From NCBI GenBank assembly GCA_021776095.1, contig JAJFGO010000055.1:7551-71550 (forward strand): 64,000 nucleotides of DNA. Reading direction: 5' to 3'. Of the stretch, positions 17,236 to 58,705 are shown piece after piece. The notes beneath the pieces were generated by a model. It worked only from the letters and a program-made list of their open reading frames with translations, made no database searches and was not told the origin of the DNA. The number at the start of each line of letters is the position of its first letter. Position 1 is the stretch's first letter. The position numbers were made by a program, and so were the translations under genes. The DNA comes from Kiloniellaceae bacterium. GTDB taxonomy: Bacteria > Pseudomonadota > Alphaproteobacteria > Kiloniellales > J153.

Positions 17236-17353
17236 TCCTTAGCCCTTTTGCGCCCCAAGGATTGCGGCTTTCTTAACTGTTCCTTGAAGCGGCCGGTCTA
17301 GCCTTCCCCGGCACGGTGCCCAGTCCAGGCCCGCGGCGGCAGGGAGGCAAAGT

Positions 17354-19081
17354 ATGACCGACTCGATCCGTTCCAACACACCCCCGAGGGCCCCCGGCGG
17401 CAACGGCCAGGTTCGGCCGACGGCCCCTGTGTCCGCGCCGGCGCAAGCACCGGCCCGCAGAAAGAGCGGCGGCGCGGTCACGACGTCGGCCCAGGCCAAC
17501 GGCCGTTTGGGCCGCATCGTTTCGGTGTCCGGCGCCAATGTCGTGGTGCAATTAGCGGCCAGTGCGAACGGCACCCAGGCGAGCCCCGCGCGCGCGCCTC
17601 AGATCGGTGCCTTGGTCCGTATGCCGACCCCGCAGTCCACCGTGTTCGGCATGGTCAGTGGCCAAAACATCCCGGCCCCGACCCAGGACGGCACCAGCCA
17701 CGAGGTACGCCTCATGGCGCTGGACCTGATCGGCGAATCCTTTGCCGTCGACGGCAAGCCGAAATTCCAGCGCGGCGTTTCCTTTTACCCGACCCTGGGC
17801 GACGAGGCCTTCGCCGCGACCCCGGATGACCTCAAGGCGATCTACGCACAACCCGATGTCCCCAACGCGCGAATCGGCACGGTCCGTCAGGATCAATCCT
17901 TGCCAGCTTATGTCACCATCGACGAATTGTTGGGCAAGCACTTCGCGATCTTGGGCACCACCGGTTCGGGCAAGTCCTGCACGGTCGCCTTGATCCTGCG
18001 GGCGATCCTTAGTGGAAACCCGGGCGGCCACATCGTTTTGCTGGACCCGCACAACGAGTACTCCCAGTCGTTTCCAGATTGCGCCGAGGTTCTGAATTCC
18101 GACAGCCTTGAGCTGCCCTACTGGCTGCTGAACTTCGAGGAAATGCAGGAGATCGTGGTCGGCAGCAACTTGGGCAATCGGGAAGCCGACATCGCGATCC
18201 TGAAGGACGCGATCTTGCAGGCCAAGCTCAAGGGCCAGACCGGCGCCGACAGGGACAGCAACCTGACCGCCGACACACCGATTCCGTACCGTCTTTCCGA
18301 TGTCGCGCGGCAGATCGACGATGCCTTGGGCAAGCTGGATAAGGCAACCGACTCCGCGCCCTATCTGCGCTTGATGGAGCGCCTGACCGCGCTACAGAAC
18401 GACCGGCGTTACGGCTTTATGTTTCCCGGTGTCAGCGTGCGGGATTCCATGGCGGCCATTCTATCGCGCATCTTTCGCGTGCCGGTCGGCGGCAAGCCGA
18501 TCACCATTCTCGACCTTTCCGGGGTGCCTTCGGAGATCATGAACGTGGTGATCTCATTGTTGTGCCGTCTGACCTTCGACTTCGCCCTATGGAGCGAGCG
18601 CGCGGTGCCGATCCTGCTGGTGTGCGAAGAGGCCCAGCGTTACATGCGCCAGGAAACCACCCAGGGCTTCGAACCGACCAAGCGTGCCTTGGCCCGGATC
18701 GCCAAGGAAGGCCGAAAGTACGGCGTGTCCCTGGGCCTGATCAGCCAGAGGCCGGCCGATTTGGCAATCGAGATCCTGTCCCAATGCAACACGGTCTTCG
18801 CCATGCGCATGAGCAACCAAAAGGATCAGGATTTCGTCCGCGCGACCTTGTCGGAATCGACCATCGGACTGATCGACGCGCTGCCGACCCTACGCACGGG
18901 CGAAGCGATCGCCGTCGGCGAGGGAATCCCGGTTCCGGTCCGCTTGATGTTCGACCTTCTGCCCGAAAACCTGCGGCCGCACAGCGGCACGGCCTCGTTC
19001 TCGAGCGCCTGGCAAGGCGATGGCAAGGATCAGAACTTCGTCGCCGCGGTGGTCGAACGCTGGCGCCAGAAAGGGCGTTAG
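17354..19081 (+). CDS. HerA-like / DUF87 FtsK-HerA-superfamily ATPase
   Basis: 575 aa. HAS-barrel-like N-terminus (GRIVSVSGANVVVQL), Walker A ILGTTGSGKS, Walker B ILLVCEEAQRY, GLISQRPADL...TVFAMRMSNQKD. Confidence 0.85.
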   Translation: MTDSIRSNTPPRAPGGNGQVRPTAPVSAPAQAPARRKSGGAVTTSAQANGRLGRIVSVSGANVVVQLAASANGTQASPARAPQIGALVRMPTPQSTVFGMVSGQNIPAPTQDGTSHEVRLMALDLIGESFAVDGKPKFQRGVSFYPTLGDEAFAATPDDLKAIYAQPDVPNARIGTVRQDQSLPAYVTIDELLGKHFAILGTTGSGKSCTVALILRAILSGNPGGHIVLLDPHNEYSQSFPDCAEVLNSDSLELPYWLLNFEEMQEIVVGSNLGNREADIAILKDAILQAKLKGQTGADRDSNLTADTPIPYRLSDVARQIDDALGKLDKATDSAPYLRLMERLTALQNDRRYGFMFPGVSVRDSMAAILSRIFRVPVGGKPITILDLSGVPSEIMNVVISLLCRLTFDFALWSERAVPILLVCEEAQRYMRQETTQGFEPTKRALARIAKEGRKYGVSLGLISQRPADLAIEILSQCNTVFAMRMSNQKDQDFVRATLSESTIGLIDALPTLRTGEAIAVGEGIPVPVRLMFDLLPENLRPHSGTASFSSAWQGDGKDQNFVAAVVERWRQKGR

Positions 19082-41392: not shown

Positions 41393-42085
41393 GTGCCATA
41401 CGCATCGCCAAGGAATGCCCAGTTGCCCGATGCCCCGAAGCCCGGCCCGCGCCTGCAGGAGCCAAAGCCGCGGGTCGTGCAGTACGACAATCGGCGGTTT
41501 TCGATCCGGCTGGAGCCAATTTTCTGGCAACAGCTGGAGCGTCAGGCCGCGCGCAAGAACCTGCGCCTGGGCAAATACGTCGGCGAGCTGGCGGGGGCAT
41601 TCACGGGCAAGAATTTCTCGTCCTACCTGCGCGTCCTGTGCATGCTGGACAGCGAGCATGACCTGGCGCGGGCAAGCCTAACGTCTGGCCGCACAAGCAT
41701 CCTCGATCTGGTGCTGACCGCCTTCACGCCGGGGCTTCTGATCTCGCGCTACCGCACGATCATCGCCTACAACGCGGCCTTTCTGGCTTGGCTGGGCCGC
41801 GACCGCCGGCCAGCCGCGGGGAGCGAACTGACTTCGGTGGTTCAGTTGCGGACACGACGGCCCTTGAACGACATCTGGCTTGACCTGATCGCGGGGACGA
41901 TCGTATCGGCCGAGGTCAACATCCTGCACGTCGTGCCGGGGCGCGTGCTGGCGGCCCCAGCCCGCTTTGTCGCCGCGCCGGCCCGTGGCGAAGGCGAGTT
42001 CTATGCGGTTCTATGGATTTCGACCAATCCTCGCCCGACCGGCGAGTTGGCGGCGCGGCAGCCACCGCGAATTCAAGCTTCGTAA
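41393..42085 (+). CDS. Ribbon-helix-helix (RHH_4-like) domain protein with uncharacterised C-terminal domain
   Basis: RRFSIRLEPIFWQQLERQAARKNLRLGKYV resembles the aryl-sulfate-associated RHH domain. GTG start uncertain. Confidence 0.5.
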   Translation: MPYASPRNAQLPDAPKPGPRLQEPKPRVVQYDNRRFSIRLEPIFWQQLERQAARKNLRLGKYVGELAGAFTGKNFSSYLRVLCMLDSEHDLARASLTSGRTSILDLVLTAFTPGLLISRYRTIIAYNAAFLAWLGRDRRPAAGSELTSVVQLRTRRPLNDIWLDLIAGTIVSAEVNILHVVPGRVLAAPARFVAAPARGEGEFYAVLWISTNPRPTGELAARQPPRIQAS

Positions 42086-42789: not shown

Positions 42790-44181
42790 TTACTGACCGG
42801 CCGGGCTGAGGCCCCCTAGCCAGGACTGGTGATTGACCGCTGCCTGCTCTGGGGCTCGGACGTTGAGGGTGTCCAGCAACAAGCCGCCGACTGCGAGAAT
42901 TCGGTAGGAGGCCAGAAGCTCATTGGTCTGCGCGGTTACCAGCAGGCCACTGGAAACGAATAGTTCGTTCTCCGAGTCGAGCACATCGAGCAGTGTACGC
43001 TGCGCGACCTCGAACTGTTGGCGATAGGCATCGCGCGTTTCCATGTTGAACTGCACCGCGTCGGACAGGTCTTCGACCCGCTGCCTATTCGCCTCGAAGG
43101 CAAACCAAGACTGGCGCATCTCGCGCTGCGCCTCAAGGTAGGAGCGCATGCGTCGGTTCTTGTTCTCGGCCACACGCGACAAGGCCTCCTGACGCGCCGC
43201 CCGATCAATGCCGCCACGGAACAGGTTCCACCGCAAACGCAGCATCACCTGATTGTTGAACTCATAGGTTTGGATGCCATCGCGGCCGTCGTTGTATTCG
43301 GATTCGGCCTCCAAGCTAACGGCGGGATAGAACGGCGCCTCGGCCAGGGTGACCTCCGCCTTCGAGGTGCGCACGTCGGCTTCGAAGATCTTGATGGTCG
43401 GATTGTTGGTGCCGGCCAAGGCGACCGCCGTTTCCAGATCCGGCGGCAGGACGCCTTGCGGGAACTCGACCGGCTCTAGACCGTCCGGGAACTGTCCAAC
43501 AATGCGCGTGAAGGTAGCTTCGCTGTCGCGCAGGTCATTCAAGCTCTGGGTCAAGGTCGAGCGGGCCCGCGCCGTGCGGGCCTCGGTCTGCACCACGTCG
43601 GCGCGGCTGCCGCCGCCGCCGGACTGGCGCTGGCGCACCGCGTCGAGAATCGTCAGATGAACGTCGAGATTGATTTCCGCCAATCGAACGAGTTCACGCT
43701 GGCGAACGACTTCCAGATAGGTGCCGACCGCGTCGAGGGCCAGGAACTCTGAATTCTCCTCAACCCGGCGGGCCGCCGATTCGACCCGTGATTTTTCTCG
43801 CTCGATCGTGCTGTTGGCTTCGAAGCCATCGAAAATCCGCTGCTGCAAAGTTACCGAGGCCTCTTGCCGGGTTAATGTCAGCGGATCCCGGTTGTTGACA
43901 TCGGCCCGGGTTGTCCGGTCGTTGGTCCGCTCCTTGCCGATCCCCGCGGCGGCATCGATCTGAGGCAGCCACAAGCCACGGGCCTGTCTCAGCTCTTCGT
44001 CGACCGCTTCACGGTTGCTGGCGACGATACCGATGTCGGGATTAGTCGACACCGCATGGTCGACCGCTTCCGTCAGCGACAGGGCCTGGGCCGCGTAGGC
44101 CCCAGGAAACGCAAATACCGTTGCAAGTAATACTGCCCTAAAGCAGCGCGTCGCCTGAACCTTGGCTAAGCGTGATCGCAT
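42790..44181 (-). CDS. TolC-family type I secretion outer-membrane protein
   Basis: 463 aa. Signal peptide, LSLTEAVDHAVSTNPDI start and duplicated OEP repeats. Confidence 0.9.
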   Translation of the reverse strand: MRSRLAKVQATRCFRAVLLATVFAFPGAYAAQALSLTEAVDHAVSTNPDIGIVASNREAVDEELRQARGLWLPQIDAAAGIGKERTNDRTTRADVNNRDPLTLTRQEASVTLQQRIFDGFEANSTIEREKSRVESAARRVEENSEFLALDAVGTYLEVVRQRELVRLAEINLDVHLTILDAVRQRQSGGGGSRADVVQTEARTARARSTLTQSLNDLRDSEATFTRIVGQFPDGLEPVEFPQGVLPPDLETAVALAGTNNPTIKIFEADVRTSKAEVTLAEAPFYPAVSLEAESEYNDGRDGIQTYEFNNQVMLRLRWNLFRGGIDRAARQEALSRVAENKNRRMRSYLEAQREMRQSWFAFEANRQRVEDLSDAVQFNMETRDAYRQQFEVAQRTLLDVLDSENELFVSSGLLVTAQTNELLASYRILAVGGLLLDTLNVRAPEQAAVNHQSWLGGLSPAGQ

Positions 44182-44642: not shown

Positions 44643-47405
44643 ATGACGGCCGGAAACAGCAAATCCGACATGATCGCAGCGCTTGCCCGCCGCGAAACGG
44701 AGCGCCGGGGCGAAGCGCCGTCTGGCGCCGCCCCGAGCGAACCAAACGCGCGCCCTGACCAGGATTCCGAGACCCAATCCGGCGCCGACGCCCCCGGCGC
44801 GGCGCGGCGCAGCCATCCGACGCACCGGCTGATCCAAGCCCTGGCCGCCGCATCGCGCCCGGCCGAGGCGCCCGAAGGGGCCGAGGAAACGACCGAGTCA
44901 ACGAACCAGACCCCAGCCAAAACGGCATCACAGGTTCCCACCCTTACCCCCGCCCAAGGTGCAGCCGGTACCGCCGGTGCGAAAGCGCCCGCCCCGCGGG
45001 ATCCTGCCCCCAAGGCCCCGGTGCCCCGCCCCAAGGACCCGAGCGCGGGTCCAGGGACCGAATCGGGAACCGCCAGCCGGCCGACCTCCACCGACCGCCC
45101 CCAGCCCGCCGCGCAGGCAAGTGCCGCCGCCCGGCCAGGGCCGACGGGCCCGGCGCCTGCCGCGGCCCGGAATGCGCCCCCCGCCCCGGCTGCCCCGGCC
45201 GCAAACGCTGGCGCAGGCGGCGCAATCGCCCCGGAAGACGTGCTCGAAGAAAAGGCAGACTGGCGCGTCGCGCCTTCGGCAATCGATTTCATAGACCCCT
45301 TGTTGTCGTCGCTGACCACGCTGGCGGCAATTTTGGAGCGGCCAATCTCAGCCGAAGCACTGAAGGCGGGGCTGCCTCACGGCGCCGAGCACTTCACGCC
45401 GGAGCTGGCGGTACGCGCGGCCGAGCGCGCGGGCCTGAGCGCGCGGGTGACGCGCCGGCCCCACCTATCCCAAATTCTGCCGGTCACCCTGCCTTGTATT
45501 CTGATCCTGAAGGGCCAGAACGCCTGCGTCCTGCTGAAATATCCGAAAGCCGGCATGGCGGAGGTGCTGATTCCCGAAGGGGGAACGGCTGAGAAGACGG
45601 TGCCGATCAAGGACCTGGAAGAGCAGTACACCGGCTACGCCATCTTTGTCAGGCCTGAGTACAAGTTCGATCAGCGCGCCTCGGACATTCGCCTGAGCCA
45701 GCCGCGGGCCTGGTTTTGGGGCACACTGGCCAAGTTCTGGCCGATTTACAGCCATGTCTTGATGGCCTCGATTCTGATCAACCTCTTCGCGATCGCCAGT
45801 CCGCTGTTCATCATGAACGTCTACGACCGTGTGGTGCCCAACAACGCCTTGGAGACCCTGTGGGTCCTCGCCTTGGGCGTGGTCACTGTCTTCGTGTTCG
45901 AATTCATCATGCGCAATCTGCGCACCTATTTCGTCGATGTCGCAGGCAAGAACGCCGACGTCATCATCGCCAGCCGGCTGCTGCAGCAACTCATGTCCAT
46001 GAAGCTGGCGAGCAAGGGCCCTTCGACCGGCGCCATGGCGAACAACCTGCGCGAGTTCGAATCCCTGCGCGAGTTCTTCACCTCCGGCACGCTGGTCGCC
46101 TTGGTGGACCTGCCATTTATTTTCCTTTTCGTGGCCGTGATCTACCTGGTCGCAGGCCCGGTCGCCTTCATACCCTTGGCGGCAGTCCCGATCGTCATTT
46201 TCGTCGGCGTGATCATGCAGTTTCCGCTGCGCAATGTGATCGAGAAGACACACCGCGAGCAGAGTCAGAAGCATGCGCTTCTGGTCGAAACCATTGACGG
46301 GCTGGAGACCATCAAGGCTGCCGCGGCCGAGGGCCGTGTGCAACGAAGCTGGGAACGTTTCGTCGGCCTGACCGCCGAGTCCTCCGGCAAGGCGCGCTTT
46401 CTTTCCGGTCTGGCGACCACCTTCGCGCAAGTCTCTATCCAGCTCTGCACCGTGGTGGTCGTCGTCTACGGCGTGCACCTGATTGCCGCCGGCGATATCA
46501 CCATGGGCGCCTTGGTGGCGGCGACCATACTGGCCGGCCGATCACTGGCTCCGCTCGGCTCGGTCGCGACCATGCTAACCCGCCTGCAGCAATCGCGGGT
46601 CGCACTGCGGTCTCTCGATGCGATCATGAAATCTCCGGTGGAGCGGCCTGAGGGCAAGACCTTCCTGCACCGGCCCCGTCTGAGCGGCGAGATCGACGTC
46701 AACGATGTCGGCTTCAGCTACCCCGCTCAGGAAGCCAAGGCCCTGGACGGCGTGTCGTTCCAGATCAAGCCGGGCGAGCGGGTTGGCGTCTTAGGCCGCA
46801 TCGGCTCCGGCAAGAGCACCATCGCCCGTTTGCTGATCGGCCTCTACGAGCCGGCCGAAGGTGCCATCCTGGCGGACGGAACCGACATCCGGCAGATCGA
46901 CCCCGCCGATCTGCGACGCAATGTCGGCTATGTCTCGCAAGATAACTATCTCTTCTTCGGCACGGTGCGCGACAATATCGCCTTTGGCGCCCCCCATCTG
47001 GACGACCAGACGATCATGCGCGCGGCGGAGGTCGCCGGAGTCACGGAGTTCGTTCGCACCCACCCGCTGGGCCTCGATCTGCAGGTCGGGGAACGGGGTA
47101 TGAGCCTGTCGGGCGGACAGCGCCAATCGATCGTGATCGCGCGCGCCTTGCTGCTCGACCCGCCGATCATCGTGCTCGACGAGCCGACCAGCAACATGGA
47201 CAACTCTTCCGAGGCCGCCTTCAAGCGGCGCATGGGCGCAATCCTGGAAGACAAGACCCTGGTGCTGATCACCCATCGAAGCTCGCTCCTGACCCTGGTC
47301 GACCGCCTGATCATCATCGATGGCGGCAAGGTGGTCGCGGACGGCCCGAAAGAGCAGGTGTTGGCCGCCCTGAAACAAGGCCAGATCCGGTCGAACCGGA
47401 ACTGA
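44643..47405 (+). CDS. Type I secretion ABC transporter (C39-like domain + TMD + NBD) with ~200-aa Pro/Ala-rich N-terminal extension
   Basis: C39-like IDFIDPLLSSLTTLAAILERPISAEAL (no Cys). Six TM segments. Walker A GRIGSGKST, LSGGQRQ, Walker B IIVLDEPTS. An alternative in-frame GTG at 45240 would remove the extension. Confidence 0.85.
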   Translation: MTAGNSKSDMIAALARRETERRGEAPSGAAPSEPNARPDQDSETQSGADAPGAARRSHPTHRLIQALAAASRPAEAPEGAEETTESTNQTPAKTASQVPTLTPAQGAAGTAGAKAPAPRDPAPKAPVPRPKDPSAGPGTESGTASRPTSTDRPQPAAQASAAARPGPTGPAPAAARNAPPAPAAPAANAGAGGAIAPEDVLEEKADWRVAPSAIDFIDPLLSSLTTLAAILERPISAEALKAGLPHGAEHFTPELAVRAAERAGLSARVTRRPHLSQILPVTLPCILILKGQNACVLLKYPKAGMAEVLIPEGGTAEKTVPIKDLEEQYTGYAIFVRPEYKFDQRASDIRLSQPRAWFWGTLAKFWPIYSHVLMASILINLFAIASPLFIMNVYDRVVPNNALETLWVLALGVVTVFVFEFIMRNLRTYFVDVAGKNADVIIASRLLQQLMSMKLASKGPSTGAMANNLREFESLREFFTSGTLVALVDLPFIFLFVAVIYLVAGPVAFIPLAAVPIVIFVGVIMQFPLRNVIEKTHREQSQKHALLVETIDGLETIKAAAAEGRVQRSWERFVGLTAESSGKARFLSGLATTFAQVSIQLCTVVVVVYGVHLIAAGDITMGALVAATILAGRSLAPLGSVATMLTRLQQSRVALRSLDAIMKSPVERPEGKTFLHRPRLSGEIDVNDVGFSYPAQEAKALDGVSFQIKPGERVGVLGRIGSGKSTIARLLIGLYEPAEGAILADGTDIRQIDPADLRRNVGYVSQDNYLFFGTVRDNIAFGAPHLDDQTIMRAAEVAGVTEFVRTHPLGLDLQVGERGMSLSGGQRQSIVIARALLLDPPIIVLDEPTSNMDNSSEAAFKRRMGAILEDKTLVLITHRSSLLTLVDRLIIIDGGKVVADGPKEQVLAALKQGQIRSNRN

Positions 47406-47418
47406 CCGGGAAAGCGCC

Positions 47419-48738
47419 ATGGTCAGCAACCAGGAAGACCTGCACTTCATGCCCGACGTTCACGCGGCGGCGCGGCGCCGTGGGCACCGCTTCGCCAGTA
47501 TTCTGACGTTCCTGACCTTCCTCTTCATAGGGATCATGGGCGTTTGGGCCCACTACGCGGTCCTGGACGAAGTGACGCGTGGGGAAGGCCGGGTCATTCC
47601 CTCAAGCAAAATCCAAGTCATCCAGAACCTGGAAGGCGGCATCCTGGCCGAAACCCTGGTCCGCGAAGGCGACATCGTTCAGGCGGGCGATATCCTGGTA
47701 CGGATCGACAACACCGCGGCGCAGGCGAGCTTCCGCGACCTGCAGGCCCAACACTACACCCTGCTCGCCACGATCGAACGCCTGGACGCCCAGCAGTCCG
47801 GCCGCGACATGAAGATCGACCAGGACTTGCGCGACAAGGCACCCGCCGCCGTGGCCGACCAGGAATCCTTATTCGATTTTCTCCGGCGCCAATTGACGGC
47901 GCAGATCTCGGTGCTCGAGTCCCAAGCCTTGCAGCGCACACAAGAAATCGCGGAGATGAATAGTAGGACCAAGCAGCTGCGGCGCAGCCTGGCGCTGACG
48001 CGTGAAGAGCGCGCGATCACCGAACCCTTGGTGCGTAACGGCGTCATGCCGCGCGTGGAATTGATTCGAATCGACCGCCAGGTGTCCGACCTGGAGGGCG
48101 AGATCGGAACCATCCGCCTATCGATCCCACGGTTGCAATCCGCGGTCAAAGAGGCCGAGCAGCGGATCGAGGAAGTCCGCCTGAGCGCCAAGAGCGAGAT
48201 CACCAACGAATTGAACCGGGCCCGCGCGGAGCTGCAATCGATTCGCCAAACCATGTTTGCCGGCGCGGATCGGGTCACCCGGACCGAAGTCCGCTCGCCG
48301 GTGCACGGCACCATCAAAGAACTCATGCACACCACGGTCGGCGGCGTGATCCGGCCGGGCGAGGATATTCTGGAAATCGTGCCCTTGGACGACCGGCTTT
48401 TGATCGAGGCCCAGATCCGGCCGACCGATATCGCCTTTCTGCGGCCCCTGCAGAACGCGGTCATCAAGGTCGCGGCCTATGATTTCTCGATCTACGGCGG
48501 GCTCAAGGCCACGGTGGAGCAGATCAGCGCCGATACCATCAAGGACGAACAGGGCGACAGCTTCTACCGGGTCTACCTGCGGACCGATCAGAACACCATT
48601 GTCCACCAGGGCAACGAACTGCCGATCATCCCGGGCATGACCACGACGGTGGAGATCCTGACCGGCAAGAAGTCGGTCCTGGACTATCTCCTCAAGCCGA
48701 TCCTCAAGGCCCGCGATCGCGCCCTAAGGGAACGCTAA
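47419..48738 (+). CDS. HlyD-family type I secretion membrane-fusion protein
   Basis: 439 aa. N-terminal TM segment, long coiled-coil, C-terminal GMTTTVEILTGKKSVLDYLLKP. Confidence 0.9.
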   Translation: MVSNQEDLHFMPDVHAAARRRGHRFASILTFLTFLFIGIMGVWAHYAVLDEVTRGEGRVIPSSKIQVIQNLEGGILAETLVREGDIVQAGDILVRIDNTAAQASFRDLQAQHYTLLATIERLDAQQSGRDMKIDQDLRDKAPAAVADQESLFDFLRRQLTAQISVLESQALQRTQEIAEMNSRTKQLRRSLALTREERAITEPLVRNGVMPRVELIRIDRQVSDLEGEIGTIRLSIPRLQSAVKEAEQRIEEVRLSAKSEITNELNRARAELQSIRQTMFAGADRVTRTEVRSPVHGTIKELMHTTVGGVIRPGEDILEIVPLDDRLLIEAQIRPTDIAFLRPLQNAVIKVAAYDFSIYGGLKATVEQISADTIKDEQGDSFYRVYLRTDQNTIVHQGNELPIIPGMTTTVEILTGKKSVLDYLLKPILKARDRALRER

Positions 48739-48986: not shown

Positions 48987-49796
48987 GTGAGCGAATTTCT
49001 GGTGTTGTTTTGGCGCAGCGCATCTGTCGTCTGCACCGCCTTCTTACTGACTTTGGCGGTCGCAGGTGGGCGGGCGGCTCAAGCGCAAACCCTGGGCGAT
49101 CTCGCCCGCGCCAGCCAGAGCGCAACCGGCGCCACGATAAGACCCCAGGCCCTGAACGGCTCCAGTCCAATAACCGGCAACGGCCTATTTGGCACCGCCG
49201 AGTTCGTGTCCGACTCACTCAAGGGTCTGCCGCAGTGGACTCGCGTTCTGGCGGAGATGGGCCGTGAGCGCCCCAAGTTCGACGCCTGCGCACGCGACGT
49301 CTCGCGCTGTACCTCCCCGACCTTGCGTAACTGGCACCATATCATCAACTCGGCGGCCAAGCTCAACCGCGCCGGCAAGATCCGCGCGGTCAATGAGTTC
49401 TTCAATCGCTGGCCCTACAAGGAAGACCGTGAGATTTACGGACGCAGCGAGTATTGGGCGGCGCCGAGCGAGTTCATGGCCCGCTCCGGCGACTGCGAAG
49501 ATTACTCCATCGCGAAGTACTTCGCGCTGCGCCAACTCGGCTTCGGCGAAGACGAATTGCGGGTGGTGATACTGATGGATGAGATTCGCGGTATCGGGCA
49601 CGCCGTTTTGGCGATATACGAAGAGGACAAGATTATTGTTCTCGACAGTTTATCCAATTTGATCCTGCCCCATGATCGCTATAAGCATTACCGGCCGCAG
49701 TACTCGATGAACGAATCGAGGCGCTGGGCCCATGTCGGCGGTTTCCGGAACCAGCCGACGGCACCCTATCGAGGGCTGGCCGCCCGTCAAAATTGA
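48987..49796 (+). CDS. Periplasmic transglutaminase-like cysteine protease (BTLCP, LapG-type)
   Basis: Signal peptide. YWAAPSEFMARSGDCEDYSIAKYFALRQLGF (Cys), GHAVLAIY (His), VLDSL (Asp). Confidence 0.85.
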   Translation: MSEFLVLFWRSASVVCTAFLLTLAVAGGRAAQAQTLGDLARASQSATGATIRPQALNGSSPITGNGLFGTAEFVSDSLKGLPQWTRVLAEMGRERPKFDACARDVSRCTSPTLRNWHHIINSAAKLNRAGKIRAVNEFFNRWPYKEDREIYGRSEYWAAPSEFMARSGDCEDYSIAKYFALRQLGFGEDELRVVILMDEIRGIGHAVLAIYEEDKIIVLDSLSNLILPHDRYKHYRPQYSMNESRRWAHVGGFRNQPTAPYRGLAARQN

Positions 49797-49810
49797 GTCG
49801 GAGAGCGAAG

Positions 49811-51931
49811 ATGGACTCGGCGGCGGGCGTTGAGAGCCCTGGAGCCATTAATTTGTTATCGTCGGACCTGCCGGCCACCGAGGCGAAGCCGGGCGGCCCG
49901 CGGGCGCTCATGGCCCGCGCCATCTGGGTCCTGGCGATCATTGCCACCCTGGCCGTGATCGTGCCCGCGATTCAGATTTACAATGAGCGTGCCAGCTTGC
50001 TGACCGATCTGGAGCGGCGCCTGGGAATCTTGGCCAGGGGCCGGGCCGAGGTCATCGATACTTGGCTGGAGGGCTTGGCGCACCCGGTCGACAAGGTGGT
50101 CAACAGCGAGATGTTCCGCCTGTTCGCCACCGAGGTCGATCTGTCGCTGACCGACATGGCCGATCTGGCGGCTGGCAACCGGCGCCCCAAGGCAGAATCG
50201 TCCGGCAGCGATATCAGCGTGCCCCTGAGCGCGCAGATCCCCTTCATGTCGCAGGTCATGACCGATTTCGCGAAAAGCGAGGGCTTTGCCTCCGGTCACT
50301 TGATCAACCGCCGCGGCGTGGCCTACGTCGGTAGTGCCGGGGCGCCTGAACTCGGCCCGGCCCAGGCCGAACTGGCCGCGCAGGTCGTCAAGAGTGGCGT
50401 GTTGCGCTACGGTCCGCTGCGCGACACGGCCGGCGGCTTGATCCTCGATATTTTCGCCCCTGTACGCAGCGCGCAAAGCGGCAGCGACCGCGCCAGCCCG
50501 GTCGGCGTGGCGCTTTTGAGCGTGCCGGTCAGCCCGCGCCTGCAACAATTCCTGGCGCCGCCCCCGCTCACCGAGCCAGGCGAGCGGCTAAGGCTGCTTC
50601 AGTTCACCGACGGCAAAGCCTACGAGATCGCGCCGGGCGAGACGCCCGCGCTGCGTCCGGTCAGCGGCCTGGCCGCGGAACGGACCGGGCCGGTCATCGG
50701 CTTTGCCCGGCGCGCCGGGCTCGCCGGCGGATCGGTCTATTCAGTCGGCGCACCCTTGAGCGGCCCCGGCTGGTGGGCTGTCCAGGAGATCAAAGCCGAG
50801 GCCATGAGCCAGCGCCTGGGCGGATTCATTGCGACCGTGGTCACCCTGGCGGTTTTGGTGATCCTGGCGATCGGCGCCGTCTTCGGGGCCTTTTGGTGGC
50901 GCCTGGCCAACGAGCACAGTTCGGCCCTGGCCCAGCAATACCGCCGCCTGGCGGCACGCATCGAGACTCAGAAACACCTTCTCGACAGCATCAACAACAC
51001 AATTACAGACCACATCGGATTGAAAGGCCCGGACGGCGCCTATCGCTACCTGAACCCGGCCTTCGCCCGCACCATCGGCAAGGATGTCGATCAAGCGATC
51101 GGCCTGGACGACGCCGCCATCTATGGCCAGGGCACGGCCGCGCGCCTAAAGCATTCGGACCAGCGCGCCCTAGCCTCTGGCGCGGCAGTGACGGTCAACG
51201 AGGAGGTCTACCTGGGCGGCAAACCGCGCCACCTACAGATCACCAAGATTCCCCACCGCGACGATTCGGGGGTCTTCTCGGGCATCGTGGCGGTGACCCG
51301 CGACGTGACCGAACTGGTCGAGGAACAGAAAAAGCGCGAGCAAGCTGTCCGCCAGACGGTTTCCGCCCTGGTTCGCGCGGTCGAGCTGCGCGATCCCTAC
51401 CTGGCCGGGCATTCCCAACGGGTGGCCGGATTCGCGGCCGCGGTCGCCCAACGCCTGGGCGCGTGTCCCGAAGACATCGCGACCGTGGAAATTGCGGCCG
51501 ATTTATCGCAAATCGGCAAGCTGGGCGTACCGCGCGAAATCTTGAACAAGCCGGGCCGCCTAACCCCGGACGAGATCGTGCAGATGCAAAGCCATCTCGA
51601 TCACGCCGCCGCCGTCCTGCGCGGCATCGAATTCGGGCTTCCCGTCTTGGAAACTGTCATGGCCATGCACGAGCGCCTGGACGGCCAGGGCTATCCGGCC
51701 GGGTTATCGGGCGAGCACATCTCCCTGGCGGCTAGGATCCTTGGCGCCTGCGACGTTTTCTGCGCCCGGCTGGAGCCCAGGTCGTACCGCCGGGGCATAA
51801 CCGCCGCGGCAGCCTTGGATATCCTGGAAAGCAACGCGGAGCGCTATGACCCACGGGTCATCACTGCCCTGCGCGAGGTGGCGCAATCGGTCGCGGGCGA
51901 AAAACTCCTGGCCGACCTAGGCTCCGCCTGA
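49811..51931 (+). CDS. Transmembrane sensor: TM - ~290-aa periplasmic domain - TM - PAS - degenerate HD-GYP
   Basis: ATG 49811 after GGAGAG (the track start 49793 is a TTG overlapping the upstream stop). HSQRVAG..., ADLSQIGKLGVP (canonical LHDIGK), MHERLDGQGYPAGL (canonical HHExxDGxGYP). Confidence 0.8.
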   Translation: MDSAAGVESPGAINLLSSDLPATEAKPGGPRALMARAIWVLAIIATLAVIVPAIQIYNERASLLTDLERRLGILARGRAEVIDTWLEGLAHPVDKVVNSEMFRLFATEVDLSLTDMADLAAGNRRPKAESSGSDISVPLSAQIPFMSQVMTDFAKSEGFASGHLINRRGVAYVGSAGAPELGPAQAELAAQVVKSGVLRYGPLRDTAGGLILDIFAPVRSAQSGSDRASPVGVALLSVPVSPRLQQFLAPPPLTEPGERLRLLQFTDGKAYEIAPGETPALRPVSGLAAERTGPVIGFARRAGLAGGSVYSVGAPLSGPGWWAVQEIKAEAMSQRLGGFIATVVTLAVLVILAIGAVFGAFWWRLANEHSSALAQQYRRLAARIETQKHLLDSINNTITDHIGLKGPDGAYRYLNPAFARTIGKDVDQAIGLDDAAIYGQGTAARLKHSDQRALASGAAVTVNEEVYLGGKPRHLQITKIPHRDDSGVFSGIVAVTRDVTELVEEQKKREQAVRQTVSALVRAVELRDPYLAGHSQRVAGFAAAVAQRLGACPEDIATVEIAADLSQIGKLGVPREILNKPGRLTPDEIVQMQSHLDHAAAVLRGIEFGLPVLETVMAMHERLDGQGYPAGLSGEHISLAARILGACDVFCARLEPRSYRRGITAAAALDILESNAERYDPRVITALREVAQSVAGEKLLADLGSA

Positions 51932-51981: not shown

Positions 51982-53070
51982 ATGCCAAACTGTCCTTCCC
52001 CTCATCGATCTCCGCGCCGCGGCGGTTCCGCCGTGCAGTATCTTGGGCCCTTTGTCCTTTGCCTTGGCCTCGTACTCGATTTGGTGCCGCTCGCTCCGAC
52101 CGAGGGCGCCCTGGCGGCCAGCCGGAATTTGGCCGAGGAAACCGGGCGAATCGAAGTCAACGCCATGGAGTATCCCTGGAGCGCGATCGGCCGGGTGAAT
52201 GCCGGGGGCCGGGGCCACTGCACCGGGTTCCTAGTCGGCGAGCGCGCCGTTCTGACCGCCGCGCACTGCCTCTACGATATGCGTGAGCAGCGCTGGCGCG
52301 GCGCCACGGAACTGCACTTCGTGGCCGGCTATCAGCGCGATACCTATACCCTCCATTCGCCGGTCGCCAGCTATGCCCGGGGTGCCGGTTTCAAGCCCGG
52401 CCCGGCAAGCGGCACGGCGAGCGCGTTGCACGATTGGGCGGTCCTGACCTTGGCACGGCCGATCGGGCGGCACGCCGGCTGGATCGGCCTGGGCCAGGCA
52501 AGTAAAGACCTGATCTCGAAAGTCGGGCGCGGCCAGGCCCGGATCCTGCAGGCCGGATACCGGCAGGGCTGGACCCATATCATGTCGGTCAGTTTCAACT
52601 GCAAGATCCTGGGACAATTTGGCAAGGGTCGGGGACTAGCCCATGCCTGCGACGTGGCCAAGGGCGATTCCGGCTCGCCCCTCCTGGCGCTGGCCGGCGG
52701 CAAGTTGCGGGTGATCGGCCTGCATGTCCTGGATATGCAGACCAAGCAGGGCCACGTGGCGGGCGCCCTCTCGGCCGCACTGTTCCGGCCCGGCACCGGG
52801 CGTGAGGAAGCAGTCAGCGCCTTGCGCCGCGCCGGCAGCGACTGGGGCGGCGGTCGGCCGCCCAAAAGCGGCAGCCCAGCGGCGTCAGCGCCGGTCAAGA
52901 CCATCGAGGACCTGCTGAGTGAGCTCGGCCTCTTGGACCCGCGCCGGGGAGGCCCCGATACGACGCGCCGCCGGGCCGCGATTGAGGCCTTCCAGGCAGA
53001 TGCCGGCCTACCGGTAACCGGGGAGCCCTCCCTGACCCTTCTGGGCCACCTGATCTCGGCAAGGGAATGA
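51982..53070 (+). CDS. Secreted S1-family (Glu-specific-like) serine protease with C-terminal peptidoglycan-binding domain
   Basis: Intact triad context: LTAAHCL, DWAVLTL, KGDSGSPLL. The C-terminal RRRAAIEAFQADAGLPVTGEPS is PG_binding_1-like. Confidence 0.8.
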   Translation: MPNCPSPHRSPRRGGSAVQYLGPFVLCLGLVLDLVPLAPTEGALAASRNLAEETGRIEVNAMEYPWSAIGRVNAGGRGHCTGFLVGERAVLTAAHCLYDMREQRWRGATELHFVAGYQRDTYTLHSPVASYARGAGFKPGPASGTASALHDWAVLTLARPIGRHAGWIGLGQASKDLISKVGRGQARILQAGYRQGWTHIMSVSFNCKILGQFGKGRGLAHACDVAKGDSGSPLLALAGGKLRVIGLHVLDMQTKQGHVAGALSAALFRPGTGREEAVSALRRAGSDWGGGRPPKSGSPAASAPVKTIEDLLSELGLLDPRRGGPDTTRRRAAIEAFQADAGLPVTGEPSLTLLGHLISARE

Positions 53071-53479: not shown

Positions 53480-55405
53480 CTAACCGAACGGCGCGCTGAG
53501 GTCGATGGCGCCATCCTCCAACAACTGATCCGCGTCAAGGCCACTCGCCCGGCTCAGGATCGCGGCGGCGGCAAAGTTCTCACCGCTTCCGGTCGCATCG
53601 ACTTCAATCACCGTGTTTCGGCCATCGACGTTGAGACGCAAATAATCGTCCAGGTTATCGGCGTCCACCGCCGGCACGGCCCCGCCATTCCCGGAAAGGA
53701 TGTCGTAAAGGTTCAAGACGTCGCCCCTCGAGGCATTGAAATCGAAGATAAGGTCCGGCGCGCCGCCTAAATCCAGCACAAAGACATCGGCACCGCGTCC
53801 ACCGACCATGCGGTCGGCGCCGTCACCGCCGAAGAGAATGTCGTCTCCCGTGCCACCGTTGAGATAGTCGTTTCCCTCGCCTCCCAGCAAGAGGTCGTCG
53901 CCGGTACCGCCGATCAACCGGTCGTTGCCGGTCCCGCCATCCAGGGCATCGGCGCCGGAGCCGCCATTGAGATAGTCGCCGTGTTCGCCACCGCGCAGCA
54001 AATCGTCGCCGCTATCGCCAATAAGACTATCGCAGCCGGCACCGCCTTCCAAAGTATCGTCGCCGGAACCGCCGCGTAGTCGGTCATTCCCCTCGCCGCC
54101 TCGCAACACATCGGCGCCGCTATCGCCACGCAGGTTGTCGTCGCCGGTGCCACCATCCAAGTTGTCCGCGCCGGGGCCGCCTCGCAGGGAATCCCGCCCG
54201 GCCCCGCCCAACAGGGTGTCGTCGCCTTGGTCGCCGCGCAAATCGTCGTTGCCGTCGCCGCCCATAAGGGTGTCGTTGCCGCTATCGCCGCGGAGACTAT
54301 CGTTCCCCAAACCACCTTTCAGGACATCGTCACCAGCGCCACCACGAAGGCTATCGTCGCCACAACCCCCATCCAGCGTATCGGCCCCGTCGTCGCCGCG
54401 CAGCTTGTCATTGCCGGAGCCACCTAACAGGACGTCATCGCCAGCGCCGCCACGCAGATCATCCCGTCCGCCCCGGCCCACAAGCAAATCTGCCCCAACT
54501 CCGCCGCGCAGCGTGTCGTTTCCCCGATCGCCAATCAGCGTTACGCCGGGAGCTTCACTCGGTCCTTCAGGATCGCAGGGATCTTCAGGTTCGGGTTCAG
54601 GTTCGGGCTCTGGTTCCGGCTCGGGATCCGGCTCTGGCTCTGGTTCCGGGTCCGGCTCGGGGTCCGGCTCGGGTTCGGGTTCCGGCTCGGGCTCGGGCTC
54701 GGGCTCGGGCTCCGGCTCCGGCTCTGGTTCCGGTTCGGGCTCGGGTTCCGGCTCGGGCTCGGGCTCTGGTTCCGGCTCTGGCTCTGGATCGGGCTCAAGG
54801 CTGGCGGCCGGAACAGATTGCGGGTCCGCCCTCCCGCCGGGCCCCAACTCAAGGTTGCCGGCCGGACCGGCTTCACCGGGTTGAAAGGAAGAGTTTCGAT
54901 CAAAGTCCTGGATTCCGGTCTCGACCAGTCCCAAAGGTTCAGTATCTATCGGATCGATCGAACCCGAACGGTTCAACCCCACGCCGATCAATTCGCCGGT
55001 GTCGTCCTCGTAGGCGCCAGCCCCGGATGTCAAGGGCTGCGCATCGCCGGCGGCCGTCTCCGGCACCGCGTCGGCCTCCAGGCTCGTTATGGCCGCGATA
55101 AGTAGGGGAGCGGTCATGACCGAACCATCGCTCATCACAATGCTCGGCGGCTGGCTGGATTCGGCCGCTGCGACAAAACGGTCGAGACGAACCACACCGC
55201 CATTGCTGAACTGTAGATTTAACGACTCGCCGTCCAGGTGCGCCTGAATTTCAGCCGCCGGAAAGCCAAATGCCAAGGTATCGCCCGGTTCCACCGGGAT
55301 ACGCAGGGTCGCCCCTTCGTCCGGCGGGACGACCGCGATCTGTTGACCAGACGGCGTCTCAATAACGGCCCTGGAACCTTGCGCATCTAGGATCGTGTCT
55401 GCCAA
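53480..55405 (-). CDS. RTX calcium-binding type I secretion substrate with N-terminal TAAG-containing module and (PE)n stalk
   Basis: More than 20 GGxGxDxL nonapeptide repeats. The C-terminal [20 protein letters not shown]...[16 protein letters not shown] resembles the VCA0849-type T1SS signal domain. Likely TTG start at 55405, 6 nt after GGAGGAGG. Confidence 0.9.
54587..54797. repeat. Imperfect hexanucleotide tandem repeat (GGYTCN)n encoding about 35 Pro-Glu/Pro-Asp dipeptides
   Basis: ggttcgggttcaggttcgggctctggttccggctcgg... Read on the minus strand it gives PEPEPE...PDPE. Confidence 0.9.
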
Positions 55406-55675
55406 GAAACCTCCTCCAACTCCAGAGCAGTTGAGCAAACATCAAGCATACAATCAGATAGTACATCAGAATCGATAAATATTCGACTATTTAATTAAGT
55501 TAAAATATGATTATTATTTAGACATATTCTAAATAATTTTATTATTATTTTTCATTATATTGTCGTAGACTCTCAATTATACTTTGTGTATGAACCCTAG
55601 ACGGCTGTCACGGCTAGTTCGGAGCCGAATGTGGCAAGAGAACGGCGCCATCCCTCGGGGTCTAGTGGTCCGATC

Positions 55676-56412: not shown

Positions 56413-56676
56413 GTGACCGGTCGCGAATTGGCTTGGCGCCAGTGGCAGGGCGAGTTGGTTGTCTTCAACCCGATATCAGGCGCGACTCATCTTTTAGATA
56501 TCGCCAGCGCCGAGATTTTTCATGCCTTAATGGCCGGGTCGACACGGCGCGGCGATTTGGCGGGTCGCCTGGCTGATCTGCTCGAAGTCGATTGCGACGA
56601 CGGGGTGCGGGCCGCGACCGACCGTATATTGGCGCGCCTGGACGACCTCGGCCTGGCGGAGCCGGCCGCCGCATGA
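56413..56676 (+). CDS. PqqD-family peptide-binding protein (HPr-rel-A system type)
   Basis: 87 aa. GELVVFNPISGATHLLDIASAEIFHAL is the PqqD/RRE pattern. GTG start. Confidence 0.8.
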   Translation: MTGRELAWRQWQGELVVFNPISGATHLLDIASAEIFHALMAGSTRRGDLAGRLADLLEVDCDDGVRAATDRILARLDDLGLAEPAAA

Positions 56677-57602
56677 TTCTGAGAGATCTATCCGTCGACG
56701 AGATCTTCCGGCACTTAAGCAGTACCGGCCTGGTGCTAGACACCGGCGCATTTCATGTTCACCTGCGCACCGATCTGAAAAGCCTGGCCCAAATGCTGGC
56801 ACGCAGTTATGGCGGCCACAAGGTCGAAGCCGAACCGGCGATCCATCACATGCAGGTGCGGATCGAACGGGGCAAATGGCGCGGCCCATGGCGCGACCGG
56901 GGTGTGCAAGCCTTCGTGAACGACCGGCAGATCTTGGGTCCCTTCCCAACTTACCTGGCCTATCCCATGCTGGAATCGATCCTTAACTGGTCGATCGCCA
57001 AGTTGATTCTGCGCTATGTCATTTTTCATGCCGGCGCGATCGAGCGCGACGGCCGAGCGCTCATCCTCACCGGGCCTTCGGGCTCGGGCAAAAGTACGCT
57101 CTGCGCCGCACTTTCCCAGACCGGGTGGCGCCTGTTATCCGACGAAATGGTGTTGCTAAACCCCACCGGGCCGGCAATCGCCGGCAACCCCCGGCCAATT
57201 TCGCTCAAGAACGATGCCATAACCCGGATCCGCGCCGTGGCCCCCGCAGCGACCTTTACCGACTCGTACGAAGGCACCGTTCGGGGCACGATCTCTTTCG
57301 TCTGTCCGACCCCCGATTCGGTCGTGCGGGCCGCAGAATCTGCACCGCCAAGCCGGGTCGTCTTTCCGCGCTTCCAGAGCGGGGCCGAGACCGAAATTAA
57401 GAAACTGGAAAAGGCCCAAGGCTTCATCCGCCTGATCGAGAATTCGGTCAATTACGTGGCAACCTTGCGCACCGGTTTCGAGGCGGTGGCGAACTTGACC
57501 GAGCAATGTCGGTTTTACGAAATCACTTTCGGCGATCTCGGTGCGGCGATGACGGCCATCGAAACCGTCGCCGCGCCGGAACCCGGCGACGGGGCGGCCT
57601 AG
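56673..57602 (+). CDS. HprK-related kinase A
   Basis: Start MILRDL in an ATGA overlap with the PqqD stop. HAGAIERDGRALILTGPSGSGKST...LLSDE resembles the HPr kinase C-terminal domain. Confidence 0.8.
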   Translation: MILRDLSVDEIFRHLSSTGLVLDTGAFHVHLRTDLKSLAQMLARSYGGHKVEAEPAIHHMQVRIERGKWRGPWRDRGVQAFVNDRQILGPFPTYLAYPMLESILNWSIAKLILRYVIFHAGAIERDGRALILTGPSGSGKSTLCAALSQTGWRLLSDEMVLLNPTGPAIAGNPRPISLKNDAITRIRAVAPAATFTDSYEGTVRGTISFVCPTPDSVVRAAESAPPSRVVFPRFQSGAETEIKKLEKAQGFIRLIENSVNYVATLRTGFEAVANLTEQCRFYEITFGDLGAAMTAIETVAAPEPGDGAA

Positions 57603-57604
57603 AG

Positions 57605-58705
57605 GTGACCCGAGGCGGTGAAATTCTGCTCGGGGTCCTGCGCGACCCGCGGCACGTCCTAGACCTTGGCCCGGCCGACTGGAACGCCTTAATGGCTTGC
57701 GCCGGGCGCCATACCTTGCTCGGGCGCCTAGCTGTCGTTCTCGAGGATGCCGGCTTGCTGGCGGAACTCCCCCAGATCGCTCAAGATTTGCTGGCCGACT
57801 CCGCCGCCATGGCGAAGGCCAATCAGACCATGCAACGTTACGAGGCAAACCGGGTGCAGCATGCCCTGCGGGGGATGGATATCCCGGTGGTGCTGCTCAA
57901 GGGCGGTGCCTATCTGCTGGCCGGCTTGCCGCCATCGCGCGGCCGGCTGTCCGGCGATCTGGACATACTGGTGCCGCGCGAGCGCATCGAACAGGTTGAG
58001 CACGCTTTGCTGGAGCAGGGCTGGCAGAGCCCGGCCATGAACGCCTACGACCAACGCTATTACCGGGAATGGAGCCATCAGATCCCGCCTTTGCGCCACC
58101 TCGAGCGGAAGAGCGAACTGGACGTTCATCACACCATCGCCCCGCCGACCGGCCGCGCCGGCCCGGATACCCAGGCAATTCTGCGCGATGCCCAGCCATT
58201 GAAGGACGGCGGCCTGCGCGTGCTCTGCCCCCCCGACATGGTGCTGCACAGCGCCGTGCATTTGTTCAACGAGCAGATGATCATGGCCCTGCGCGACCTG
58301 ATCGATATGCACGATCTGCTCAGCCACTTTGGCGGCGACGAGGCTTTTTGGCCGGAATTGGTAAGCCACGCCGCCACGCATAATTTGCAGGGCCCGTTGT
58401 ATTATTGCACCCGCTATTGCCGCCGCTTCTTGGGGACATCCATACCGGCCGGGGCCCTGAGCGAAATCGAGGCCTTTGCGCCCAATCCGCTCGCACGCCG
58501 GGTCATGGATTGGCTGGTCGCCGCGACCTTGGTGCACGAGCCCCCGGACCGCCAATCGCCGGGGGCAGCGTTTGCGCGTTGGCTCTTATTTGTGCGATCG
58601 CATTGGCTGCGCATGCCGCCGGGCATGCTGATCCGTCACATCCTGGTCAAGACCTTCCGCCGCGCGCGGCCCGATCCCGAGTCCGAGCCCTTGCCGCAAC
58701 CTTGA
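57605..58705 (+). CDS. Uncharacterised nucleotidyltransferase-family protein (NTP_transf_5-like)
   Basis: LKGGAYLL...SGDLDILVP...ELDVHHTI pattern. Probable GTG start 3 nt after the kinase stop. Confidence 0.7.
   Translation: MTRGGEILLGVLRDPRHVLDLGPADWNALMACAGRHTLLGRLAVVLEDAGLLAELPQIAQDLLADSAAMAKANQTMQRYEANRVQHALRGMDIPVVLLKGGAYLLAGLPPSRGRLSGDLDILVPRERIEQVEHALLEQGWQSPAMNAYDQRYYREWSHQIPPLRHLERKSELDVHHTIAPPTGRAGPDTQAILRDAQPLKDGGLRVLCPPDMVLHSAVHLFNEQMIMALRDLIDMHDLLSHFGGDEAFWPELVSHAATHNLQGPLYYCTRYCRRFLGTSIPAGALSEIEAFAPNPLARRVMDWLVAATLVHEPPDRQSPGAAFARWLLFVRSHWLRMPPGMLIRHILVKTFRRARPDPESEPLPQP

Follow-up and report, generated by a model that had tools for sequence, protein, structure and literature searches.

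We analysed a 64,000-nucleotide stretch of a Kiloniellaceae bacterium genome (assembly GCA_021776095.1, contig JAJFGO010000055.1, positions 7,551 to 71,550 of the forward strand; hereafter the window, to which coordinates refer), which carries at 42.8-55.4 kb a compact cluster resolved by Pfam and NCBIfam into genes for a type I secretion system (T1SS), a protease of the BTLCP family (Peptidase_C93), a membrane receptor, a trypsin-like protein and an RTX protein. At its centre stand the protease gene (48987..49796, + strand, 269 aa) and, immediately downstream, a receptor candidate resembling DvhD of Desulfovibrio (Nitratidesulfovibrio) vulgaris Hildenborough, with a longest open reading frame (ORF) of 49793..51931 on the + strand (712 aa) and a probable extent of 49811..51931 (706 aa). 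We observe here the gene content and order, homology of every receptor domain to DvhD, degenerate catalytic motifs in the receptor, an intact protease triad, conserved synteny and, in the RTX protein, a cleavage motif. We propose with good confidence that this Kiloniellaceae-like alphaproteobacterium here encodes a variant of the Lap adhesin-release system that is of DvhDG type.

The arrangement is shared widely. A scan of one genome per species yielded 420 loci encoding relatives, of which the best 80 were examined; the closest match to the window came from a Kiloniellaceae metagenome-assembled genome at 75% identity. Among the loci with enough upstream DNA, a BTLCP gene lies directly upstream of the receptor in 74 of 75 (60/61 alpha-type, 14/14 delta-type), and 52 of 56 loci carry ATP-binding cassette (ABC) transporter and HlyD genes farther upstream. 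The same arrangement was found in three independently fetched genome and metagenome contexts. Other surroundings occur as well. In L071 (10001-12097), the only such case with enough flank, BTLCP, ABC and HlyD genes are all missing within 10 kb of the DvhD homologue, and Pelagibius marinus (L019, L021) encodes two DvhD/BTLCP pairs, one with a full T1SS upstream and the other with no recognisable ABC or HlyD gene nearby.

The protease matches Pfam C93 with E=1.8e-16 and aligns to the LapG structures 4U65_E (E=4.8e-20) and 4FGO_A with GDCED, GHAVL and VLDSL in register, in agreement with the intact Cys/His/Asp context that a preliminary description of this DNA had reported. By this alignment the catalytic and calcium-binding motif GDCED occupies residues 168-172 with C170 (49488-49502, +), H205 lies in GHAVL (49596-49610, +) and D220 in VLDSL (49638-49652, +). 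In the neighbouring BTLCPs of the surveyed loci C170 is conserved in 73/78 and H205 and D220 in 78/78 each, and the acidic residues of the calcium motif that flank the cysteine are kept as well (D169 in 77/78, E171 in 78/78); in the published DvhG work a D316A/E318A mutant was inactive. The N-terminus has a hydrophobic, export-signal-like stretch ending in AQA/QT (residues 31-35), and orthologues carry RRxFL motifs there that resemble twin-arginine translocation signals. Although homologous to LapG, the protein scores far under the NCBIfam LapG equivalog cutoff (97.6 bits, cutoff 320), and judged by its sequence it is a divergent member of the family, not a gammaproteobacterial LapG equivalog. 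We note that serine replaces the catalytic cysteine at L064, L065, L067, L073 and L077 (GDSED or GGSEN), with histidine and aspartate kept; these proteins may use a serine nucleophile or be inactive variants.

Receptor residues are numbered from TTG 49793, a start that overlaps the protease stop and had at first been considered for this gene. It is probably not used: as ATG 49811 is preceded by the Shine-Dalgarno sequence GGAGAG, homologues begin MD... and a 93%-identical homologue has 706 aa, translation probably starts at ATG 49811. The topology given in the preliminary description, i.e. transmembrane helix, periplasmic domain, transmembrane helix, cytoplasmic PAS and HD-GYP domains, is borne out by the Pfam boundaries (405-509 and 526-689) and two flanking hydrophobic helices. 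In an AlphaFold2 model built on a family alignment (mean pLDDT, the predicted local distance difference test, of 78), the hydrophobic first transmembrane segment TM1 (residues 43-63, AIWVLAIIATLAVIVPAIQIY; 49919..49981, +) is located inside a helix of residues 36-103, which breaks before a second helix, alpha1' (residues 106-117, EMFRLFATEVDL; 50108..50143, +). The latter is the most conserved periplasmic motif, with F111 invariant and L110, A112 and D116 kept in at least 90% of an 18-homologue alignment, and by comparison with D. vulgaris we regard it as a candidate protease-docking surface.

The periplasmic domain (about residues 64-334, roughly 270 aa; 49982..50794, +) matches the DvhD structure 9RC2 with 31% identity and E=8e-35. 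It ends in GWWAVQ (residues 326-331; 50768..50785, +), the final beta-strand before the second transmembrane segment: in the model, strand 327-334 passes straight into helix 335-374, which contains the hydrophobic TM2 (residues 345-369; 50825..50899, +), and the aligned counterpart of GWWAVQ in 9RC2 is GWWVFD, at the C-terminal end of that construct. The cytoplasmic PAS domain (residues 405-509; 51005..51319, +; Pfam PAS_4, E=4.6e-19) was aligned to the DvhD PAS domain in 9RC0, and a helix of residues 506-533 forms the stalk between PAS and HD-GYP domains. A Foldseek search with the model returned as its top three matches 9RC2, 9RC0 and 9RBZ, all DvhD, with template modelling scores of 0.79-0.86 (0.86 for the periplasmic domain of 9RC2), and lower down the dCache sensors PctC, KinD and rpHK1S-Z16; LapD was absent among the 50 matches listed. 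The DvhD structures were also the best phmmer matches in the PDB (9RC0, 1.7e-75; 9RBZ, 2.6e-51; 9RC2, 7e-32), with BLASTP identities to DvhD of 41% over PAS/HD-GYP and 31% over the periplasmic domain. Because sequence and fold matches concur, we assign the periplasmic domain to the dCache class and the protein as a full-length DvhD homologue, which settles the choice between LapD_MoxY_N and Cache domains left by the preliminary description. A LapD-type receptor is rejected, since there is no Pfam match to LapD_MoxY_N, HAMP, GGDEF or EAL, and the suggested kinship of GWWAVQ with the GWxQ loop of LapD is not sustained, as GWWAVQ is a membrane-proximal last strand leading into TM2 rather than a membrane-distal loop.

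The HD-GYP domain (residues 526-689; 51368..51859, +; Pfam HD_5, E=1.4e-41) has SQ in place of HD (S572, Q573; 51506-51511, +) and MHE in place of HHE (from 51665, +). It matches the active enzymes V-cGAP3 (5Z7C, E=3.7e-32), PmGH (4MCW, E=3.4e-23) and PA4781 (4R8Z, E=5.3e-16), with which it has the fold and the GYP motif in common. LSQIGK aligns opposite LHDIGK/MHDIGK and MHERLDGQGYP opposite HHEKLDGTGYP/HHERWDGTGYP of 5Z7C/4MCW, and SQ and MHE likewise stand opposite metal ligands of 4R8Z; in contrast to the HD/HHE ligands of the active proteins, the window receptor thus has SQ/MHE. In DvhD, the residues that align with S572 and Q573 are S559 and Q560. S572, Q573 and the DGxGYP residues are invariant in 18 full-length homologues at 39-76% identity, and across the surveyed loci SQ occurs in 62-63 of 66 of the alpha type and in all 14 of the delta type. 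Since both replacements persist in proper alignment and SQ is conserved, they are not an alignment artefact; realignment did not recover the HD dyad, so the substitutions noted earlier stand. The comparison then drawn with PA2572, the YN-GYP protein of P. aeruginosa, holds as a parallel between degenerate HD-GYP domains and is looser than that with DvhD. We take PA2572 to be similar in having an HD-GYP domain without catalytic dyad and a regulatory rather than enzymatic role, and presumably different in having another architecture without the TM-dCache-TM arrangement, no BTLCP partner and YN instead of SQ, i.e. a parallel and not a subfamily relative.

The DvhD and DvhG proteins (DVU1020 and DVU1019, also BfsD and BfsG) belong to a system of D. 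vulgaris Hildenborough with a T1SS and the adhesins DvhA and DVU1545, in which DvhD was put forward, and put to the test, as the functional counterpart of LapD (PNAS 2024; PMC10990149). Its PAS/HD-GYP fragment binds bis-(3'-5')-cyclic diguanosine monophosphate (c-di-GMP) with a Kd of ~0.3 uM (PMC10990149), or ~0.1-0.3 uM across PMC10990149 and PMC13090378, and control of DvhG by DvhD was c-di-GMP-dependent in reconstituted P. fluorescens (PMC10990149). The subsequent DvhD structures (Nat Commun 2026; PMC13090378) showed a dCache periplasmic domain, SQ as HD motif and MN as double histidine; no hydrolysis occurred with any metal tested, c-di-GMP splays the stalk helices, inside-out control of DvhG was proposed, an AlphaFold3 model seats DvhG on helix alpha1', and DvhG is without the Trp pocket. 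Mutations that hit c-di-GMP stabilisation of DvhD hardest were those of R650, Y652/R653 and P567 (PMC13090378).

The window system shares with DvhDG the gene order T1SS, BTLCP, receptor, the receptor architecture of TM, dCache, TM, PAS and HD-GYP, the exchange of HD for SQ together with loss of the first histidine of HH, the splitting of helix alpha1 into alpha1 and alpha1', the C-H-D triad and D-C-E calcium motif of DvhG, and a candidate DvhA-type substrate with probable retention module, helix and [T/A/P]AAG. It differs in its identity to DvhD of only 31-41%, in having MH and D654 where DvhD has MN and N641, in a protease with a short signal-like N-terminus and a linker of ~60 aa, as compared to the transmembrane anchor and disordered linker of ~180 aa in DvhG, and in a substrate of ~650 aa with (PE)n spacer and RTX beta-roll instead of a giant adhesin. 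The anchor of DvhG is probably strain-specific, with signal peptides in most orthologues (PMC13090378). In addition, the alphaproteobacterial clusters keep an extra trypsin-like/peptidoglycan-binding gene and an RHH_4 gene. The likeness to LapD/LapG/LapA of Pseudomonas fluorescens, with homologues in Legionella, Vibrio, Bordetella and Shewanella, is one of logic, with a T1SS-anchored di-alanine substrate, a periplasmic BTLCP protease and, as predicted for the window, an inner-membrane c-di-GMP receptor with a dead catalytic domain; the window receptor is however unrelated to LapD, being without LapD_MoxY_N, HAMP, GGDEF, EAL and the distal Trp loop.

In the nucleotide pocket, the DvhD residue number plus 13 gives that of the window receptor. 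Five of eight canonical c-di-GMP contacts are identical (Y523/L577/Y621/R650/Y652 of DvhD, Y536/L590/Y634/R663/Y665 of the window protein), R653 is conserved as R666, and the PRSYR nucleotide-contact motif is found at 51776-51790 (+). Of the bridging site, P567 is kept as P580, while K520 is replaced by R533; the bridging proline occurs in 43/66 alpha-type and 5/14 delta-type loci. As R650, Y652/R653 and P567, the positions of strongest mutational effect in DvhD, are all retained, we consider c-di-GMP binding by the window receptor likely on the basis of its sequence.

The candidate substrate is the RTX protein (53480..55438, - strand, 652 aa), which has 13 HemolysinCabind stretches (E=2.6e-67) and matches TIGR03661. 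Its order is an N-terminal strand-rich region of ~100 residues, a helix of residues 110-124, PETAAGD, a (PE)n spacer, 13 RTX repeats and a C-terminal T1SS signal, a layout that fits the one described in the DvhDG literature, where a retention domain is followed by a targeting helix and [T/A/P]AAG. PETAAGD (residues 126-132; 55043-55063, -) corresponds to the LapG/DvhG cleavage motif, and the spacer between this TAAG site and the RTX repeats (54581-54796, -) is encoded by a 6-bp tandem repeat in 34 copies and covers ~72 residues. The true start is likely TTG 55405, after GGAGGAGG, as the resulting MADTILD... resembles the MA[DE]T starts of homologues. At 27-58% identity, the N-terminus of the RTX protein is homologous to N-termini of proteins from loci that contain other DvhD/BTLCP pairs, and TAAG or PAAG followed by a conserved GGxGxYEDD is present at the equivalent position in eight of ten such N-termini (L006, L007, L069, L070, L072, L073, L076, L083). 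Residues 1-160 gave no homologue at E<=1e-5 in a large protein database, and an NCBIfam scan at E<=1 assigned no family to either the RTX N-terminus or the RHH_4 protein of the cluster.

We propose that the system operates as follows; that the receptor binds nucleotide without hydrolysing it, signals inside-out and controls the protease is carried over from the D. vulgaris work. The TolC channel, the LssB/LapB-type ABC transporter and HlyD would export the RTX protein, which is probably held at the surface via an N-terminal periplasmic retention module. The periplasmic calcium-dependent BTLCP protease would cut PETA/AG after the retention module, thereby freeing the RTX protein. The DvhD orthologue, in which SQ replaces the metal-binding HD dyad and the first histidine of HHE is lost, is predicted to bind rather than hydrolyse a cyclic dinucleotide, most likely c-di-GMP. 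The ligand would splay the stalk helices of PAS and HD-GYP, and the change would be relayed through the transmembrane helices to the dCache domain, which would then restrain the protease, probably via the conserved helix alpha1'. High c-di-GMP would hence keep the protein on the surface and low c-di-GMP would lead to its release. The idea of a dead HD-GYP domain as inside-out gatekeeper of a LapG-type protease in place of LapD, already put forward in the preliminary description, is in this way supported by homology to the experimentally characterised DvhD/DvhG.

Several points weigh against this interpretation. Sub-micromolar c-di-GMP binding without hydrolysis and protease control have been demonstrated for D. 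vulgaris DvhD only (PMC10990149, PMC13090378), and how DvhD restrains DvhG was called 'hitherto unknown' and rests on the AlphaFold3 model (PMC13090378). No diguanylate cyclase is visible in the window. The candidate substrate, of ~640-650 aa, is unusually small, with the (PE)n spacer alone separating the cleavage site from the RTX repeats and no Ig-like adhesive repeats, and for these reasons 'adhesin' may be the wrong word. A single-sequence AlphaFold2 model of its N-terminus has strands across residues 11-109 at a pLDDT of 51 and was used for secondary structure only. In the receptor pocket, the canonical contacts K582, M646 and E668 are replaced throughout the alpha clade, by I595, R659 and N681 in the window protein, and R569 of the bridging site is replaced by E582, such that affinity or ligand preference may differ. 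The window protein moreover has H626 and D654 where DvhD has N613 and N641, i.e. two more metal-ligand positions. These pocket differences are not peculiar to the window but define the whole alphaproteobacterial clade versus the deltaproteobacterial clade. The signature (51578-51835, +) reads, alpha versus delta, I/V/M versus K/R at 595, R versus M/L at 659, H versus N at 626, D versus N at 654, and N versus variable residues at 681.

A further, tentative proposal, which we hold at well below even confidence, is that the alphaproteobacterial clusters constitute a distinct three-protein variant of DvhDG with a remodelled pocket and a second protease. The pocket, with I595, R659 and N681 and with H626 and D654 retained, could on sequence grounds have an altered ligand preference or hold a partial metal site. 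The second protease is the trypsin-like serine protease (51982..53070, +; Pfam Trypsin, E=1.1e-15), with intact AAHC and GDSGSP motifs and a C-terminal peptidoglycan-binding domain (PG_binding_1, E=1.3e-6). A homologue is encoded directly downstream of the DvhD homologue in 42/61 alpha-type and 0/12 delta-type loci, and the protein is possibly an accessory factor peculiar to the alphaproteobacterial clusters. Tethered to peptidoglycan, it may aid release or clearance, e.g. if it removes the retention plug after cleavage or processes the BTLCP protease. The main text of the published DvhDG work says nothing of either pocket remodelling or a second protease.

The same replacements bear on the ligand. 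The receptor could be of DvhD type with 3'3'-cyclic GMP-AMP (3'3'-cGAMP) or linear pGpG as preferred ligand of the alpha clade, in a pocket remodelled accordingly, as the positions exchanged clade-wide are exactly those that contact the nucleotide in DvhD (I/V/M for K582, R for M646, N for E668), and H626 and D654 are kept. E668 has been proposed as the source of guanine specificity, DvhD itself binds 3'3'-cGAMP with a Kd of ~0.5 uM (PMC13090378), and the closest active enzyme by sequence, V-cGAP3 (5Z7C, as above), is a cGAMP phosphodiesterase. However, R650, Y652/R653 and P567 are all conserved, E668 is not conserved in delta-type homologues either and so is not family-defining, and no cGAMP synthase is evident in the window; we regard this option as unlikely.

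Signalling could also run mainly from the outside in, with the dCache domain sensing a periplasmic ligand or the protease, and PAS/GYP signalling in the manner of RpfG to partners in the cytoplasm, for instance GGDEF proteins, protease gating being secondary or absent. Ligand sensing is typical of dCache domains, and PctC and KinD are among the fold matches; the GYP motif and PAS domain are strictly conserved; and LapD itself signals in both directions. Against this, the DvhD dCache structure showed no ligand density (PMC13090378), DvhD provides c-di-GMP-dependent control of DvhG in the reconstituted system (PMC10990149), and the near-universal adjacency of the BTLCP gene points to the protease as output, rendering this reading very unlikely in our judgement. 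That the HD-GYP domain is still an active phosphodiesterase lowering local c-di-GMP, with the protease pairing a matter of co-regulation only, is scarcely credible and was rejected on the invariant SQ: H540, H601/H604, H626, E627, D654 and the full DGxGYP are kept, more metal-ligand positions than in DvhD, but the HD dyad, the crucial metal-coordinating motif in the published PmGH comparison, is SQ from Kiloniellaceae to Desulfobacterales, and no metal tested supported hydrolysis by DvhD, which shares this SQ (PMC13090378).

The remaining genes of the cluster supply the secretion apparatus of the DvhDG-type reading. They encode a TolC-family outer-membrane T1SS channel analogous to LapE/DvhE (42790..44181, -; Pfam OEP, E=2.2e-48; NCBIfam type_I_sec_TolC, 288 bits, cutoff 225), an LssB/LapB-type T1SS ABC transporter with C39-like domain (44643..47405, +; TIGR03375 type_I_sec_LssB, 985 bits, cutoff 693, residues 218-914) and a HlyD-family periplasmic adaptor (47419..48738, +; NCBIfam type_I_hlyD, 406 bits, cutoff 209). 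The start of the transporter ORF is uncertain, the first ~200 aa (44643-45290, +) before the C39-like domain being Pro/Ala-rich and of low complexity, which represents either a disordered extension or an over-long ORF call. Beyond the channel gene lies a ribbon-helix-helix protein with a weak PAS-like C-terminal half (41393..42085, +; Pfam RHH_4, E=8.1e-11). Its homologues stand beside TolC in many Kiloniellaceae and Pelagibius loci and adjoin the DvhD homologue in L001, and the protein is possibly a regulator of the cluster. The main text of PMC13090378 makes no mention of a trypsin-like or RHH_4 accessory gene.

In agreement with the earlier statement that the cluster has no GGDEF or EAL gene, neither was found by Pfam on the cluster genes and on the ten largest ORFs besides them, or by scanning the 64 kb for motifs in six frames; those ten ORFs are housekeeping genes, e.g. 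LeuA-like, NadE, GlmS and GlmU (Pfam). No hidden lapD emerged in the window from the motif scan or from Pfam on the largest ORFs, and a promoter and terminator scan gave nothing usable above shuffle expectation. Two further gene pairs were noted elsewhere in the window. At 56592-58705 (+) two genes overlap, one for an HPr-kinase-like P-loop protein and one for an NTP_transf_5 'uncharacterised nucleotidyltransferase', a pairing reminiscent of peptide-modification clusters, and at 15490-19081 (+) a 581-aa ORF without Pfam match stands ahead of a HerA/DUF87 ATPase gene (17354-19081).

In conclusion, the pair in the window is a new alphaproteobacterial member of DvhDG and not a new receptor class. 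The preliminary description had regarded this class of receptor as undescribed for Lap-type release; DvhD is already published (PMC10990149, PMC13090378), the supplementary files of PMC13090378 list Pelagibius, Kiloniella, Denitrobaculum, Fodinicurvata and Sneathiella accessions, and the DvhD/DvhG-family accessions there include that of Pelagibius litoralis, WP_167230622.1 (P0080), 48% identical to the window protein. The finding is hence a rediscovery, and the original inference, drawn from sequence alone, was mechanistically sound and not new. Only the pocket changes specific to the clade and the additional, conserved serine protease go beyond published work, and these merit a modest follow-up. 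With secretion system, protease, receptor and a 650-aa substrate in ~11 kb, the cluster represents a compact natural test case, and its reconstitution could prove simpler than that of the giant Desulfovibrio adhesins. It extends the coupling of c-di-GMP to surface release by a receptor other than LapD from sulfate reducers to marine Kiloniellaceae and Pelagibius-type alphaproteobacteria.

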